A stretch of DNA of 62,545 nucleotides, filler included, from Porpidia crustulata (taxonomy: Eukaryota), in the NCBI GenBank assembly GCA_964255105.1. It is 14 parts of 14 records of this genome, joined end to end, with 100 filler letters (N's around TTAATTAATTAA, not from the genome) between each part and the next. Parts side by side here need not be neighbours in the genome. Positions count along the whole stretch, not along the records: positions 40,390 to 44,748 come from CAXUWE010002093.1; 13 more parts are not named here. One strand, written 5' to 3'. Below are positions 39,608 through 49,307 of the stretch, piece after piece. The notes below the pieces were generated by a model. The model did not search any database. It saw only the letters and a list, made by a program, of their open reading frames with translations, and was not told the DNA's origin. The position numbers and the translations under genes were made by a program. The stretch's first letter is position 1. Each line of letters begins with the position of its first letter.

Positions 39608-40415
39608 AATTTCTGGTTGTTTTCTGGGTTCAGTTACGTGAATGTCAATTATCAAGAGTTCTCAGGTAGGTCGAGTAGCATTAAGAGGGAGTGAGCGCAG
39701 GTATATATGCCTCTGTACATGTGAGTGAGTGAACGAATGGGGTTGGAACCGCTGCGAACAGCTCTTATTCAGGTAGGCATCCAAGCTGTACTTAGGTCAC
39801 AGGAACACATGACGCACTGCAAAGTAGGCAAAGTTAAGGTGGTGGGATTGACAAGGCCCGCGCTCACCGACCACGAACCAAATGTAGGGTTGTACGGTGC
39901 CACGGTGCCAGGCGGGAATGCCCGCACATGAAACACCCCGGCCCGAGTCGTCTTACCTCTCACCCTCCATCGGCGACAAATGACATAGCTTATCGACCCC
40001 GCACCAACATCACTCCACTCTTTCTTCACCCATCCACACCCGTGCCCCTCATAGCGTGAAACCACCTTGCCACCCTGCCTGCTATCCTAGGATAATCGGC
40101 ATTCACAACTCGTGGTGTTACACCATGCGGTCCTTCGCTCATATACCGGCATAATTTCATGTGTATGCATGTTCGGTAGGAGGATTTATGTAGGTACATA
40201 GGTGTATGTGTGCAGAATGTTCCGATAGGTAGGGTGTATGTACTCTATATGGAAGGGAAGGGACATGTGGACTGCGTGTGGTGTAGGGGNNNNNNNNNNN
40301 NNNNNNNNNNNNNNNNNNNNNNNNNNNNNNNNNTTAATTAATTAANNNNNNNNNNNNNNNNNNNNNNNNNNNNNNNNNNNNNNNNNNNNGTAGGGGGAAT
40401 CTGGAGAAGGCGGGG

Positions 40416-41633
40416 TTAGTTGGGTTGGTTTTGGGTAGGTTGGGCATGCTCGGAAAACTCCTGGGTTTGACTACCTTCTATCGGAACAACAGCAGGAACA
40501 CTCCTGTCTGGTGCATGCGTGTCCAATACTTCATCGATAATGTTTTGGGTGTTCGCCTTTAGCATTTCTCCTAGGCTATTTAGTCGATCTGTGGTCTCTT
40601 CATCCAAAACTTTGCATCCGGCACACCCAGCCGCCATACTAATGACGTTGTTATTGAACGTCCCCGCATGCGCGAGACTCCCAATTTTCGTCGGGTCGAA
40701 CAACGCCATGATGTTCGCCTTTCCCCCAAATGCTCCGAAGCTCATCCCTCCGCCTCCCCATTTGCCCAAGGTCATGAGATCAGGTTGAATGCCTAATTTG
40801 TGACCTAGTCCGCGGTACGAGAGGCGGCTGGTCATGACTTCGTCGAATATGAGGAGCGCGCCGTGGGATGAGGCGTACCCGCGGAGGAATTCCAGGAACG
40901 GCAAGGAGCCGGGGATGGCACCGGCGTTGCCGAGCATTGGTTCGACGAGGATGGCGGCGAGACTATCGGATGGGAGGGCTGAGAGGATGTCTTTGGTTTT
41001 GGCAATGTCGTTATAGATGGCAACGACCCATTCGTGAGGGAGGTTCACGCTCTGGTGAGTTGCTCCAGTGGGCGGGACACGGAATGAGAGTGTGGCTCCG
41101 TGATAACCTCCTTGAAAGACGAGGATTTTCTTTCTGCCCGTCCATACCATTGCCAGGGCCACGGCCATCATGTTTGCCTCTGTACCCGAATTGGTAAATC
41201 TCACCAGCTCCATCGTAGGCTGAAATCTTTGGCAAATCAGCTTGGCCAATTCCTTTTCGTAGATGTTATTCCCCCCGAAGCTCCATCCTTTGTTGAGCGC
41301 TTCATCAATGGCACTGCGGATGGCTGCGTTATTGTGGCCATAGATACCCGCGGTGTACTCGCCAAGGAAATCGATGTAGCTGTGGCCGTCAAGGGAAATC
41401 AGGGTGCCACCATTGCCCGAGGCAAAGGTCATGGGGAATGGATTGGCATGGAGGACAGTGCGTGTATTACCGCCTGGGAGGTGTTTGCATGATGATAGGT
41501 AGGCTTGGTGAGACTTGGGATTGAGCTCGCTGTATGTGGAGTGGACTTGTGCGAGGACCCCTTGGACAGCTTCAATCAGCTTTGGGTGATCGGACTGTGA
41601 CGGACTTGGAATTGGGAGGTGTAGAGTAGTCAT
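40416..41633 (-). CDS. Class III PLP aminotransferase (glutamate-1-semialdehyde aminomutase-like); C-terminus probably lies beyond the contig end
   Basis: LPGGNTR, DFLGEYTAGIYGH, RFTNSGTEANM, GGYHG, LIFDEVMTSR, PLP lysine in DLMTLGKW and HAGTFNNN. Confidence 0.88.
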   Translation of the reverse strand: MTTLHLPIPSPSQSDHPKLIEAVQGVLAQVHSTYSELNPKSHQAYLSSCKHLPGGNTRTVLHANPFPMTFASGNGGTLISLDGHSYIDFLGEYTAGIYGHNNAAIRSAIDEALNKGWSFGGNNIYEKELAKLICQRFQPTMELVRFTNSGTEANMMAVALAMVWTGRKKILVFQGGYHGATLSFRVPPTGATHQSVNLPHEWVVAIYNDIAKTKDILSALPSDSLAAILVEPMLGNAGAIPGSLPFLEFLRGYASSHGALLIFDEVMTSRLSYRGLGHKLGIQPDLMTLGKWGGGGMSFGAFGGKANIMALFDPTKIGSLAHAGTFNNNVISMAAGCAGCKVLDEETTDRLNSLGEMLKANTQNIIDEVLDTHAPDRSVPAVVPIEGSQTQEFSEHAQPTQNQPN

Positions 41634-43820
41634 TTTGATTGTCTGCTACCATTGGGGATGAAGTAAGGGCAGAAAGGGATGCCGGAATGCTGAGCTGGAG
41701 GAGGCGGCTTACCAAGTAAGTAGTGGCATCTTGCACGCAAGAGGCCGACGATCGGAGCATAAGTAAGGTAGTTTAATAGGAGCATTCACCGCTTCGTTGT
41801 CTTCATCCATGCCGAACACGGACCTGCCGGCTCTTTCATTCATCTTGAAATGTTCGTGTCGTCAAAGCTCGCTTCGCTCCGGCGGCACATTGATTTTCCG
41901 CTCTTTCGCTCTGCATGCTGGATCCTGAAAGGGGAGATTGCTGAACTAGGAAGAGCGTCATGGGCACAACTGTACAGTTTCAGGCGGGAGCATTAGATAC
42001 CCCATGCCGGCGGAATTGTGGTTAAATCGCAACACTGTCTATTGATACCAAGCTGAGATGCTATAGGCGAGCAACGAACCTCGTGGGGAATAGACGGATT
42101 TGAGAGCGAATCGGAACTCGCGTTCTACAACCAGTAGTAGAGCTGCCGGCTTCGTCTTTATCGCTTGCGTCTTCTACTGTCAGCCCCACGGATTGCGAGA
42201 GTGCTTGCAAGAGTGCCTGCCAGCAGGTGGGACATCTTGAGGATCACATAAGAGGAATCTAAGCGAGGAGTGACGAGATAGTTCTGTGCAAAACAACGCT
42301 GCTTATATTTTTTCGGCGACGAACCAAAGCGAGAAAGTCTACACAGCATTTATCTACAAGGCTTCGTAGAGCGGAAAGAGCCGGATGTCCTCGAAAAGAT
42401 CGGAGGTCATTGTCAAGACTAGCACTGTTTCACCTACTTTGGGAGAGCCGCTTCGATACCTATTGAAGATGAAAGCATTCATCGAATTGCCGAAAGATCA
42501 TGTTATGGAGGCAATCTCTGAACTGGCTTGGAGAGCACATTTGTGGAGAGTAAAGATCCAAACGCAAACCACATGAGGTATCAGTTCACGTGCGTTCATA
42601 TCAGCAAAACATTCTATCATCGAATTCCTACCATTACTTCGTGGCAATCCGCACACCATGGCTGAATGTGAGTCGTCTTTACGAAAGTTTCGCTTGCTTA
42701 AATGGTCCGCCTTCTTGAAGGAATGCCTGGCTCTTACTACAACCAGAGAGCTCATCGGGTATCTGCGTTCAAACCAGCAGTCTCCACGTACCCCGTGGGC
42801 AATGAATGTAGCAGTGGCACTGTCTGCCCAGAGATCCTTCGCCTGACTGGTATGTAACACTCCTCGCACAAATGACTGTGCTCATGGTATGTTGTCTCAC
42901 CTTCCGTTTATCTGTTTGCACGGGGTATCTCATCTTCTTTGAATGTTTCAAACTTTGAGCTTCCGCCAAGCTGCTCGTGGTAGTTTGGACTACCACTCTA
43001 GAGCTTGCAAATATTTTAGGTCTTTTCGAGCGCCCTTTTCTTCTACGGCCAAGAGTATGGATGGTGGCATATAGCTACCAGATTTGCATTTTTGCACCTG
43101 AGAAAAGGAACGGAAGTTCCCACTGCTATTTGCACGCCATGAAATTCTGACCCTGTTGTCTGTGTTTTCTCTACATTACGTATGGTCACAGTACTACAGG
43201 ATTATTTCTGAAAGGTGTGGATCTTTGTACTGAACTACGCATAAAGGAAAACCTTGAATACAGTTGAGCGAAATTCGACCATGCCATGCTTGGAGGGTCA
43301 CCGTCGGCTTCATGCAATATCACTTGAGGTTTTAGAAGATTCTGAGGATTCTGCTGACCGCCGACGCATGGGTAGTAGAACATTTTGATCGCCCAAACCT
43401 ATGCAACCGCAAACTCATGATTTGGCCTGAGAAGTCCTTCAGTATTGCCGACGCTCGAATAGGATTAGCGCATCAAGGTTGAGCTAACCGCATTTGGGTA
43501 TCAATAGACCAGATTCACAGACACTCGGCTTTCATCCTCAAACCCGATGAACAAGACAAATCCCAACGCCCAAATCTGAAGCAATAAAGAGGATCTGGTT
43601 TGAGAGGGCTTGCCTATCGGTATGACTGGCCGAATGGGCATCGCCAACTACAACAGTTTTGATTATAACGTTATAGCCTGCTACCCCTTTTTTGGAGCTT
43701 CTGAGCATTGGTTGGCGTAAGCTTGCTCTCATTCGAAATGCATCATAAAAACACTATCGGTAACCGATATGTTGTAGCTGTGGCCTGGATCCCTCTCATG
43801 ACATGGCTAGATGCGCCTCG

Positions 43821-44060
43821 CTCAATAATTTCCCTCAATGTTACTATGACCCTTGTTCTCCAGTATCTCTTGATGAAAGCCGTTGTTGAGCCCTCGTACT
43901 CTATCACTTCTTATTGACAAAGATCTTAGTTTTAGAGCCACCGCCCGTGCATAGATTCTTTTTGACGACCCAGTCCTTTATTGATGGTGGTAGTGCCACT
44001 TCACTTTTAGCTCATTGCAATCTTATTGGGGTTCATTGAAACACGGAAGAATCTATAAGA
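43821..44060 (+). promoter_or_regulatory. Pheromone-gene promoter with clustered YATTG(A) motifs and a TATA-like element
   Basis: CTCAATAA 43821, CTCAATG 43834, TTATTGA 43911 and 43978, TCATTGC 44012, TTATTGG 44023, TCATTGA 44033, and CTATAAGA at about 44053. Confidence 0.45.
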
Positions 44061-44319
44061 TTTCTCGAGTCCCTGTCTATAGATCCATTTGCCAGCTCAC
44101 TTATAGTCTTTCCTTACTCATCTTTTCTTCAGCAGTACGAGATCATCTTTGATAGATATCTCCTTCTGGAACTTGCCTTCCTTCTTTTCATCATCCACAC
44201 TCTTTCATACCAAAACATATTTGCTATTCTTGACGGAGATTATCCAACATCTGGACTCGACTCTCGGTATCCAGAACAAACATTTACCCTTAGCGATATC
44301 TTAACGGCATCTTACCAAC

Positions 44320-44748
44320 ATGAAGCTCACACCTATCCTCTGCACTGCCATCCTGGCTACTGCATCAGTCCGGGCCCTACCGATCCAGGAGCCCAACTCC
44401 GATGACCGTCCTGATGTCCAACTGGCAAAGAAAGGAATTGCAGCCCAGGCCAATGCTGATGCCCTTGCCGCTCCTGGCGAAGTCAAGAGAGGCAACATTT
44501 GGTGCTATCTGGCCGGGCAACCATGTTCGAAAGCCAAACGTGACGCTATCGGTCTTGTTGACGCCGACGAATCGGAGGACTCTGCCGGAAATAGTAAGCA
44601 ACGGCCTTCTTCCCACCCCTTTGCTTCCATATAGCATGCTGACCAAATGCTTCACAGACCTTGTTGAGCGTGAACGTGTGCATCTAGGAGGTCTAGGTGA
44701 TGGGTGGTATGATTCTAAGAAATGGCCTCATCTCGCAGGCGAGCCAAT
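44320..44748 (+). CDS. ppgA: Alpha-factor-type mating pheromone precursor (PpgA/Ccg-4 class), 3' truncated; intron 44594-44657
   Basis: Signal peptide, X-A dipeptide run (AQANADA) and a Kex2-flanked unit KR-GNIWCYLAGQPCSKA-KR matching the Pezizomycotina WCxxxGQxC consensus. Confidence 0.88.
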
Positions 44749-45709
44749 NNNNNNNNNNNNNNNNNNNNNNNNNNNNNNNNNNNNNNNNNNNNTTAATTAA
44801 TTAANNNNNNNNNNNNNNNNNNNNNNNNNNNNNNNNNNNNNNNNNNNNGTATATATATATACAGCATATAGATAGCAATGATGTAGACAGCGTATACAAA
44901 GCATGAGATTCTACCAAAACAGTTATATAACAAAAATATCGGCAATTGGGGGGTTATGATTTATCAAACACACATATTTAAAAATATCATCAACATTTCA
45001 TTTACATCTTTCGACCCATCACCCACACAATTTTCAAAATTTTTCTTACTAAAAACATCTTCCCACTGGTGCACATTCACTCTGCATACTCATACCACAT
45101 CCATCAATTACATTTACGCACATGTCATATCCCATATCCCATATCCCATATATCCATACTATAATCTATTCAATCAATCCTAGCCGAATTTTTCTCCTTT
45201 TTCCCCTTTTTCTAATGGATTTCCGCTTCCAACTCGTATTCATCAGATTCAAGTGGTCGAGGTACATCCGTACGATTTTCAAACCCCGGTCGAGATATAT
45301 TTTCAACCTTAGCCGAGCTGAACCCCTGGATATAATCCGCGCCCATCGCGGCTATTCTCTTTTTTTGGGGGAGAATTTGCAATGGGTTTAGGTTTTTTGG
45401 TAGGGTTTGTTTCTGGGGGGTAAGTGGTTATGTTGCTTTGCTTCTTTTCGTTGTTGGTTTTTTTTTTGTGATTGAATCCTTTTTTTCTTCTAGCCTTGTG
45501 CTTCCTTGTGCGTTCTCTTTATTCAATACTCTCAAACCCCAGACAAACCCATAACTCACCCCAACCCCAAAACCTTTCAGCGCCAATCAACAACGCCAAC
45601 CCAAGGACCTCATCATTCTCCTCATTTCCATAATCTCAATTTCCACTTTTACTTTCAATGGAGGTGGTACATTGCAAACCTCAGAACAGCCAAATGACGG
45701 TACTCAATC

Positions 45710-48212
45710 TTACCTCCATACTATAAACCCTAGAATCTTAAATATCACGATCGCAGTCACAAAGAATACACCTGTTCCCTCATGTTTGAAGCTTCTCATT
45801 GATTCTCCCCTAAATACAATGGCGGTGTTGTTCGCAGCCGCCAAGAAGGTAGCCGGGGTACTTCCCACTGCAGTCGTGAAAGGTGATGGTGTGCCGTCGG
45901 ATGATGAAGATAAATTTATGTTTTGGAGCCGATAAGGAGATTGGCAGTATTCGGAAAACTCGATATGTTAGGGGTCGCAATGATAGATTCCGTAGTAGGT
46001 TGTGATGGCCCCGCGAGTGTGGGTTTGGATAATCGAGCTGAAACAGAGGTCTCTTCAGAAGATCTGTCTATCGTCGTCGATAACAGTGTCGTCTCTGCAA
46101 CGGATAGGCCGTCATTAGGTACCAAGTGCGACTGCTGACCGTCTGCTGAGGAGAGCGTTGATGCAAGAGACGAGTCCGCAGCTGTAGATACGAGAGACTT
46201 TGTTGTCAAGCCATTCGAATTCAAACTAATAGACATGGCTGGGACTATTGTCTTATTCTTGCTGAGCAATATCGTTGATTCAGCAACGGCCTCGGTATTT
46301 GGATCTCCTCTAAGAGGTTGATTTCCAATTAATGAGAAAGTAATTGATATAGTCGAAGGTGGTATTGCAAGTATAGACGTTTCAGCGATGTTATCACCAC
46401 CATCGGCCGAGGTCGCCATTCCTAGTGTTGTTGCTGTAGAACCTTCTTGTGACAACGTCATCCCTGCAATGCCTGCGTGGGTATCTGGTGCTACATTGAC
46501 TACCTGATCATTCGTACCCGGGAGAGTAGATGAGACGTCTTATGTGACAGAGTCCCTCGTGCTACTCAACGTATAGCTAGTTGTTGACAAAGCAGGAGCG
46601 CTATGAATCATGATGGAATATCCGCCAATGGTTGCTTGCTGTAGGCTTGAGCTGGAAGTCAAGTTGTATCTTGTCTCCTGTACTGCTCCGCTATACTTAT
46701 TATCTGTTTGAAAACCCAAGCTAGGCTTTAGATTTGAGTCAGACTTGGTCTCTGATGGCGCATTAATGATCTGGCTCGAAGCTGGACCCGGCTGAGAAGC
46801 AGGATCTGTATTGACGGGAGAATCAAGCCTGCTTTCTAAACCAGCGGTACTCTTACTCATGCTCGATACAGGAGCCTGTGGCAGTGGAGCTGATGTAACT
46901 TTCGCTGAGGGGGTTGCACTCGGAATCATGGGATTCATAGTCGATGCTGGGGCAGCGGCGGCTGGAAAGTCCTTCCCCACTTGTGACGTTTTTGTAGTCG
47001 GATCCGGAGTAAGAGGGCCGGAAGCAGGCAGTAGCATTCGAGGTGGATCCCATAATCCGGCGATAGCCGAGCAGGATGACCACGAGGGCTCGAGATTAAA
47101 TATTTCTTGAGGAACTGATAGCAAAGGTTTGCACGGATCGTATGAAACCACTAGATTCAGATATGACGAGTCAGCGTTATCGATCTTGAGGTTTTCAAAG
47201 TTATGTTAGCTATGACCCTTGGAATGTGGTCACAAACCTCCTTCCACATTTGTGACCGTCTTCTGTCCACAATTCCTGTAGATCGTATGTCAGCTATAGG
47301 CCCTTGATATTTATCCATAGCATTGATTACTCTGTAAGATCATGAAGATTCATTGTTGTCCAGGCAATATGATTTATCACCTCATGGAGAGAGATGTGAT
47401 GGGGTATGACAAGAGCGCCAGTCATCAGCTGGTTGGGTAGAAAAGACATAGTAATCATCGGATAAGATGACCCTTTCTGACCACAATGATCAAAAGCGGA
47501 AAGCGACTGGAATGCTATATAAATCGATGGGGAAGTACTGCGCCATGGGTTAATTATTTATCCTTTTCAGATTAGGAATTTCTTACAAGGTAAACCCATT
47601 AGAGACAAGAGTATAGCTGACTTGGTCCTTAATTGATGTGACAACTGTAGATTGACTAATCTTGATGGCACCGATTGAAATGTTTGAATGGGTTGGAACT
47701 TCGGTGTTCGGCCAGGCATACAGCTGGGCCTCGTCCCCTTGAAGACGACAAGTGCCACAACAAGGTGGCTTCGCTACATATCTCCAGCTAGGATCATAAG
47801 AAGCGGCCGATACTAGCGAAGCAGTCACGCCCAAAAGTTTCCTGTCTGGACGATAGCCATTGAAGCTTGTTGTACCAGTGATTGGGCCTGACGCAATATA
47901 CTGCAGGAAAACGGTAGAATATTGAGTACTACATAAGCTTTGGAGGGTATCGCATGGAGTCCCCTCGCATTCCCACGGGTTGATACAGCCCTGTCTCGTA
48001 ACGACAGCACAGCTTCGGCCAACCGCGATGGCGGCGTTGAGATAGGTAGCGTCGTATGAGCTGGAACCAAACCACTTGTGGGCGCATGAAGACGGAACCG
48101 AAAAAGAGATATTTGGTGCATGATCAAATTCAGTGTCAGAAACCAAAGACTGAGAAACAGAAGGTAATATATTGACGGCCATGATGAGTAGAACGAGGTT
48201 GAGTGATAGCAT
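45710..48212 (-). pseudogene. Secreted Cys-rich/Ser-Thr-rich, probably GPI-anchored protein, disrupted by an in-frame stop and a frameshift
   Basis: Signal peptide, PPCCGTC..LYAWP, TSPSIYIAF..AFDHCG and CKPLL..LEPSWSSC..WDPP over 4 exons. In-frame TAA at 46540-46542 with the same frame continuing to 45916. A hydrophobic GPI-like tail lies in a shifted frame ending at 45710. Confidence 0.6.
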
Positions 48213-49307
48213 TATATATGAAATACGAGATAATCTCCTGAATTCAAAGAGGAGTCTCATAACAGGGAAATGAGAAGGAAGTACAAGGTGCACGAATTGA
48301 CGTTTCGACAACTTTACTCTGCAATAAGAGCCTGCTGAACCTCAGGACATTCATTGCGGGTTTCCGAAACGTACCTCCCTTCCACTTGAGATCTGTGTAG
48401 TAGTCAACAAGCCGAGCTCACCACCACCCTGATACAGCCCTCCCATACACGGCCCCCATCTGGGGTGACACCGTGTATGATCCTTGAGATTGCATCTCTG
48501 CCCGTACTTCAAGGTCTACTGCATCTGGTAGAAAAGAACACTGCAAGTCTCGAACCCACCAATCAAGTAGCCACTTCGCTTCCGAAAAGGCCGCAACAGT
48601 GTTTCTTGAGAGTCGTACACCGTTGTTTTATAGCTTTGCCCTCATCGATCTGTGATTTCCCGCCTCGCTCACGCTTTGCGGCACTCCACTTCAAAGATCA
48701 TCGCAAGTCCTCCTAGTGATCCTATTGATGGTTTCCTGTCGCACCAAACGCTATGGCTTGTACGCTTTGACAGCGCTTCGAGCTTCTTGTACTCAATCTC
48801 AATAGGTATGCACCTGCTGAGAGCGCTTAGCTGTAAGCGGTTAGTCGAGAAGGCTAAAGTGCCAACGGAAACTCTGGCCCTTCTCGTCAGTCAGCTATTC
48901 TTTCCGTCCGAACGCTCTTCATTCTCCCCTCATTATCTTAATTTCAGAGCTTATCAATCCCAAAAGCCGATGCTGAGACAAATATTCATTCGTCAATAGA
49001 ACTGTTGACTTGGGAATATTGTCATCTCCCATAAATGTCAATTTCAATTCCTCAAAACTCCCAATGTCCCCATTAACTACGTATGATATCCTTGTCCTCA
49101 CAACCACATCAATCGTCCCTCTCATCTCAATCCTCTTCTTCTCGAATTACCCTCCCCCTACTGCTCCACCGCTCAGTCACCCTGTCCCCTGGGACCCCTC
49201 TCCAAACNNNNNNNNNNNNNNNNNNNNNNNNNNNNNNNNNNNNNNNNNNNNTTAATTAATTAANNNNNNNNNNNNNNNNNNNNNNNNNNNNNNNNNNNNN
49301 NNNNNNN

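Follow-up and report, generated by a model that had tools for sequence, protein, structure and literature searches.

A probable alpha-pheromone precursor gene with one canonical unit and an apparently amplified Cys-free unit

Can one pheromone precursor carry two chemically different kinds of unit and, if it does, is the second kind put to use or is it a remnant? Most alpha-pheromones of filamentous ascomycetes are recognised by their two cysteines, and the question is raised by a gene of Porpidia crustulata in which a first-pass annotation had read a canonical unit followed by one without cysteines. The window (the whole stretch of DNA analysed, 62,545 nucleotides) is a chain of fungal contigs of ~4.4 kb separated by artificial linkers of the form N44-TTAATTAATTAA-N44 (e.g., 44749-44848), and contigs on the two sides of a linker are not physically linked. 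The pheromone gene lies at the right end of the contig 40390-44748. Divergent from it, 2.7 kb upstream and running towards the contig start, is an aminotransferase class III gene (PF00202, E=1e-44; 40416-41645, minus strand). The features of the first exon are:

44320..44593, plus strand: exon 1 of the alpha-pheromone precursor, 91 codons plus 1 nt, with its ATG at 44320
44320..44376, plus strand: probable signal peptide, residues 1-19, its end placed by alignment with relatives
44485..44541, plus strand: canonical pheromone unit GNIWCYLAGQPCSKA, with KR on either side (translation ...EVKR-GNIWCYLAGQPCSKA-KR-DA...; 17.8 bits)

Translation from the ATG bears out the KR-GNIWCYLAGQPCSKA-KR reading of exon 1 given earlier. 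Is its family a known one? A phmmer search with exon 1 gave 91 matches at E<=0.001, and removal of the self match and of two unrelated long proteins left the 88 relatives that were examined. Canonical units occur in 82 of them (301 units in total), one matching cluster is named Pheromone protein 1 / ccg-4, and exon 1 is 44-55% identical to its closest relatives (alignment A1). The hydrophobic N-terminus (Kyte-Doolittle up to 2.3) aligns with the N-termini of relatives and is a predicted secretion signal; Pfam MF_alpha_N on the precursor gave E=0.21, below the cut-off, and no Pfam model recognised the precursor family above cut-off. In an atlas search with exon 1 all matches were under 0.9, the best being 0.84 for an unnamed Ascomycota cluster and 0.79 for MF_alpha. 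A word-index search with exon 1 against proteins of 161-2000 aa retained none of 591 candidates, a weak negative as it missed relatives that phmmer found. Within exon 1, KK at 44428-44433 stands where P0006, P0093, P0094 and P0033 have KR, so that either a site has been lost or KK is tolerated in this species.

Does the upstream sequence fit with a mating-type role? The consensus for MAT1-1-1 is given as YYATTGAB (PMC8022922), and four matches to it precede the gene:

43500..43507, minus strand: MAT1-1-1 consensus site CTATTGAT, ~820 nt upstream
43821..43828, minus strand: MAT1-1-1 consensus site TTATTGAG, an octamer also reported in the A. fumigatus ppgA promoter (PMC8022922)
43911..43918, plus strand: MAT1-1-1 consensus site TTATTGAC
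43978..43985, plus strand: MAT1-1-1 consensus site TTATTGAT

These are sequence matches only, four in the upstream kilobase against 0.45 per kb elsewhere (Poisson P=0.0012), with at least four being reached in 9 of 5000 shuffles. This is also the densest kilobase of the stretch: just 5 of 464 sliding 1-kb windows have four sites, and all five are here. Because family homology with canonical units is accompanied by these upstream sites, there is a high probability, as far as sequence can tell, that the gene is the orthologue of ppg1/ppgA and encodes an alpha-type pheromone precursor. A 164-nt contig of run X2, an air metagenome according to its record, matches the promoter segment 43970-44132 at 97.5%, and a close relative may be present in that sample. 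Separately, three consensus sites, including a perfect CTATTGAG, fall within 280 nt at 48722-48999. They lie ~500-790 nt upstream of a gene on the minus strand (ATG near 48212) whose product looks secreted and is rich in Ser, Thr and Pro; three scanned frames of it gave no Pfam family, and it is a possible second MAT1-1-1 target.

As to the organism, a protein encoded on a neighbouring contig is 95% identical (216/227) to a Xylographa parallela protein, which points to Lecanoromycetes. The placement comes from one protein: ten were looked up, four were in the collection and only that one had species-named members. On the assumption that both contigs come from one organism, this suggests a lichen-forming Lecanoromycete host. 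Very little on the pheromone precursors of lichen fungi was found in the literature; for one lichen fungus, Endocarpon pusillum, loss of the alpha-pheromone gene is reported (PMC3897900).

What follows exon 1 is the subject proper of this report:

44594..44657, plus strand: predicted 64-nt phase-1 intron, with donor GTAAGC, branch CTGAC at 44639-44643 and acceptor CAG
44658..44748, plus strand: exon 2, copy 1 of the repeated Cys-free unit, reading LVERERVHLGGLGDGWYDSKKWPHLAGEP then AT, truncated by the contig end
44660..44671, plus strand: L-V-E-R, probable non-canonical (LxxR) Kex2 site, homologous to the L-M-E-R of relatives
44717..44722, plus strand: KK ahead of the variant core, doubtful as a processing site given the P1 preference and the sites of relatives
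44723..44748, plus strand: Cys-free pheromone-like core WPHLAGEP plus AT, with Pro for Cys2 and Ile or Met for Cys9

Fourteen GT-AG pairs leave the frame open to the contig end, and the 44594/44657 pair was chosen because it combines a consensus donor with the first acceptor after the branch point. The codon that this intron splits is AAC (Asn). The reading frames of relatives diverge at the same point, and one family opens with a translation matching that of the intron end. The earlier reading of a 64-nt intron, then an exon 2 with WPHLAGEP and AT, accordingly stands as a consensus donor/branch/acceptor prediction. If, instead, intron 1 were retained or the message ended early, the variant units would be untranslated and the product would be a 104-residue single-unit precursor; reading through the donor does give a 104-aa ORF with its stop at 44632. 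This is very unlikely, given not only the consensus donor, branch point and acceptor but also the same intron position and phase implied in relatives, and later copies of the unit that begin at the acceptor AG. In the wider family, the ORFs of P0006, P0012, P0032, P0033, P0055 and P0071 end in intron-like sequence after G-K or S-K, which suggests that there is a group of alpha-pheromone genes with introns, broken up into single exons by gene callers.

Is WPHLAGEP a pheromone unit at all? Scored against a profile of 298 canonical units from which the two Cys columns were removed, the core has 14.3 bits, where the exon-1 unit has 17.8 and the canonical median is 19.5. Leaving the two units themselves aside, one other 9-mer among the 87,127 of the stretch in six frames scores at least as high as the variant core, and the likeness of the core to a pheromone unit is more than chance. 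The aromatic first residue and the central G-[QE]-P turn are kept and the two conserved cysteines are absent. Sequencing error is an unlikely cause of their absence, since the Pro and the Ile/Met codons at the former Cys positions are each at least two changes from Cys. A further comparison is with the P0032 family (6 sequences, one 90% cluster), an exon-level ORF of a related fungus that opens with a translated intron end matching that of the present gene: MLTSYLTD-LMER...WCYMPGEP there corresponds to MLTKCFTD-LVER...WPHLAGEP here. From its L-M-E-R onwards P0032 reads L-M-E-R-D-P-E-A-H-V-K-E-I-W-C-Y-M-P-G-E-P-C, and in the alignment E-R, H, W and G-E-P are invariant, with a nine-residue insertion in the present exon 2. 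This alignment makes the variant homologous by position to a canonical repeat, in a gene where each exon holds one repeat, and the first-pass proposal of a derived repeat that has lost its cysteines gains from both score and alignment. The L-A-G of the core is shared with the gene's own exon-1 unit but occurs in only 1 of the 301 units of relatives; these three residues match those of exon 1 with different silent positions, a difference that could predate the loss of the cysteines.

Has any other fungus kept such a unit? The comparison with orthologues that the first-pass annotation had envisaged turned up none carrying it in protein, metagenome and atlas searches, which are weak because intron-containing genes are represented there as single-exon ORFs. 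Word-index searches with exon 2 gave no candidate among proteins of 38-123 aa and retained none of 16 candidates among those of 124-2000 aa. A metagenome scan with the exon-2 frame gave at least two loci from 594 stretches, both unrelated and matching intron-derived residues, and in the atlas search with exon 2 all matches were under 0.9 and nothing useful emerged.

Does the gene continue beyond the contig end? No further copy of the canonical or the variant unit is present elsewhere in the whole stretch. Three Logan contigs of run X1, which may be the source run of the genome assembly and so a second assembly, not an independent sample, were placed on 43900-44748. Record 1 equals 43900-44708 with 0 differences. 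Record 3 (213 nt), which overlaps record 1 by 30 nt, equals 44679-44748 with 0 differences, continues for 90 letters and then takes up the sequence again from 44656, where 3 of 53 letters differ. In record 2 (1238 nt) the segment 44717-44748, with one letter changed, is followed by 89 letters and then by 44656-44745, in which 16 of 90 letters differ; the loose end of this record, read by eye, gives P-I-H-I-K-R followed by a short Ala-containing stretch. The exon-2 unit thus recurs with periods of 183 and 182 nt, all pieces are gap-free and both later copies begin with the acceptor AG, as would be expected if the exon is constant and the introns differ by one base, though the intervening letters are not shown. 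The depths of the three pieces (11, 7 and 10) agree better with single copies in tandem than with a depth of 11 shared between two alleles. Most simply, then, there would be at least three derived Cys-free units to one canonical unit. At a likeness of 80%, X1 gave no second piece for the canonical unit, in a search whose filter can drop records. Runs X3 and X4 yielded no contig for this segment. Such an architecture of several units, one canonical and most simply at least three derived, fits the family.

The suspicion in the first-pass annotation that the contig breaks because further repeats follow was well placed, and its proposal to recover the 3' end is realized in these extensions past 44748. 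Its alternative that the second repeat is decaying is weakened by the recurrence, most simply, of three or more variant units rather than one. Because the exon-2 unit recurs beyond the break and was amplified after losing a cysteine, it can be put down neither to misassembly nor to one lone repeat in decay. That the loss came before the duplications follows from two points: in the first copy of record 2 one changed letter out of 32 is too few to bring back either Cys, and the most diverged copy has Ile, read by eye, at the second Cys position. Seven of the 16 differences of that copy are not listed, and its first Cys position is not visible. The residue after GEP in copy 1 had been left as Met or Ile, and it is probably Ile. 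Met, and with it a likeness to yeast GQPMY, was rejected, this likeness being probably not real because the most diverged copy has Ile there and copy 1 probably does too. Could assembly error, or mixed haplotypes at the contig end, have produced the whole effect? The unit does sit at a contig end, X1 possibly holds the same reads, and the two repeat junctions are on separate contigs that nothing bridges. Nevertheless, the second assembly has 0 differences over 43900-44708 and 44679-44748, on which ground contig-end misassembly was rejected, and the depths fit single-copy tandem pieces, so that an artefact is hardly credible.

By what cuts would the Cys-free units be released? Kex2 is described as taking Arg almost always at P1, accepting Glu at P2 and favouring Leu at P4 (PMC8528282), and in KEP surveys KK is treated as a processing site (PMC7329392). 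Among 254 canonical units of relatives, 72 have LxxR as their closest site on the upstream side, and in the 88 relatives KK never directly precedes a canonical unit. On these sequence comparisons L-V-E-R is the more likely cut than KK, and because it is the homologous site the product would be of ~28 residues, from behind L-V-E-R to KR, rather than of 9-11. KK, which the first-pass annotation took for the dibasic release site, is a poor Kex2 site and was rejected as the main cut on the P1 Arg preference and the want of any KK-preceded canonical unit. Were KK cut, W-P would be exposed, a dipeptide of the type that Ste13, with its X-Pro specificity (PMC7329392), would be expected to remove. Unlike the D-P-E-A of relatives, no Ste13 spacer follows L-V-E-R, and a 17-residue extension would precede the Trp. 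The KR behind the variant unit is seen in the most diverged copy only. Translation and release of the Cys-free units we regard as likely.

Are released units also functional units? Here the evidence for selection on the copies is mixed, and selection is unproven. In the most diverged copy none of the nine listed differences makes a stop; three of the nine are silent (expected fraction 0.23; P=0.36), not above chance, and there are four residue changes in nine codons, with the Tyr kept. Of the 16 differences nine are in the front extension, a third of the length, so that they tend to avoid the LVER site and the core (P=0.05). The main rival explanation is birth-and-death drift: the gene would be kept for its exon-1 pheromone, the later exons being translated, functionless and neutrally duplicated. 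Pheromone repeats have been explained by birth-and-death evolution, and precursors with a single unit are on record (PMC13037118, PMC8661429); there is no significant synonymous excess among the copies, and no orthologue with the unit was found. A look-alike elsewhere also speaks for drift. Ppg1 of the F. solani complex (P0007, residue 259; P0100-P0113) has a Cys-free W-G-F-F-P-G-Q-S before KR, within a spacer, in 15 of 15 listed members, a conservation partly due to their forming one 90% cluster. It differs from the present units in being a single, unamplified copy that closes a long spacer, in a precursor with 5-6 canonical units. Among the 88 relatives, a sample biased to canonical units and without downstream exons, only this Ppg1 has a Cys-free look-alike of similar score, and no description of it was found in the literature. 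Less easy to reconcile with drift are the absence of gaps and the retention of KR in copies that have diverged by up to 18%. Amplification of only the dead unit beside one working copy would also be odd, because fewer repeats lowered mating in S. pombe (PMC6342294). Drift we hold to be possible, if somewhat unlikely.

May the units have become something other than pheromones? They could be a new Kex2-processed peptide co-secreted with the pheromone, e.g., a decoy for proteases, a signal perceived by another receptor or by the photobiont, or a RiPP core. The long Gly/Trp/Tyr-containing extension is not seen in relatives, its Tyr is kept in the diverged copy, and a route from pheromone to other product has been proposed for a Rutstroemia Ccg-4 homologue (PMC7329392). 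However, it is the pheromone-like part (W-x3-G-E-P, then KR) that appears the better conserved. With regard to a dikaritin-type RiPP (KEP with DUF3328), the unit does contain Tyr; the upstream side has one long ORF and 42 shorter frames, and the long ORF, the one scanned, is an aminotransferase III (Aminotran_3). Such a change of function is improbable.

The reading preferred here is that released, functional pheromone-type peptides come from the Cys-free units, beside one canonical pheromone, and to it as a whole we give a little less than an even chance; granted release, it is slightly more probable than not that the units are kept for function. By this account MAT1-1-1 would switch the gene on, the message would be spliced and the precursor would enter the secretory pathway. 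Kex2 and Kex1 would release one two-Cys pheromone from exon 1, and cutting of the later exons at L-x-x-R and K-R would yield at least three linear peptides of ~28 residues, each ending in a Cys-free W-x3-G-E-P turn. The ancestral exon-2 repeat would have lost its cysteines, gained about nine front residues and then been duplicated by unequal crossing-over. What might such peptides do? In F. oxysporum the Cys2-Cys9 oxidised pheromone is reported to be inactive and the central Gly-Gln turn to be required (PMC7289986), and a D-Ala1,2 analogue, without Cys2, to keep Ste2-dependent chemotropism and lose quorum sensing (PMC7289986, citing Vitale et al. 2017). The present unit keeps W and G-E-P yet cannot oxidise, and for this reason the peptides may, by analogy, be a second, persistent ligand of Ste2/PreB that disulfide formation does not inactivate, an oxidation-proof agonist or modulator co-secreted with a disulfide-switchable pheromone. 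This specific role, the most plausible of the functions considered, is offered tentatively and is itself rather doubtful.

How does the gene compare with known systems? With Pezizomycotina ppg1/ppgA/ccg-4/MF2-1 it shares a signal peptide, Ala-rich spacers, a KR-flanked W-C-x3-G-Q-P-C unit, several units and the MAT1-1-1 sites; it differs in having one canonical unit, and amplified units that lack cysteines and a Ste13 spacer and have the 17-residue front. Closest in exon 1, in implied intron position and in the L-x-E-R opening of exon 2 are P0006/P0093/P0094, P0033 and the P0032 cluster, but the later repeats of the P0032 cluster are canonical (IWCYxxGEPC) after D-P-E-A; the later exons of P0006 and P0033 are unseen. 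Non-identical repeats are known, with P1-P6 in S. pombe Map2, for which a mate-choice benefit is proposed (PMC6342294), five unique peptides in the Bretziella fagacearum precursor (PMC13037118) and four different ones in that of Colletotrichum asianum (PMC8661429). In the accessible text of those reports these are sequence variants of one peptide type, none with most units Cys-less. A precursor with an amplified Cys-free majority beside one canonical unit was met neither among the relatives nor in the literature searched, outside which the main survey (Martin et al. 2011) may describe degenerate repeats; a search of the literature for degenerate ppg1 repeats gave none, and five six-residue motifs had no occurrence in it. 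S. cerevisiae alpha-factor is Cys-free. Cys-free alpha-pheromones, PYG[L/M]P[I/V]G, are also described in Pleosporales (PMC6339444). Ste2 ligands, as both these cases illustrate, need no Cys, but there all the repeats are Cys-free, in contrast to both types in one precursor here.

The family is a known one and the gene is real; its amplified Cys-free feature is more extensive than first seen, and its function is unproven. If the units are drifting remnants, this is ordinary repeat turnover. If instead the preferred reading is true, a gene that has both types and has amplified the Cys-free one would stand as a natural intermediate between them, with a change in pheromone chemistry captured inside a single gene, and would open the questions of what the cysteines do and of how a pheromone class changes without breaking mating.
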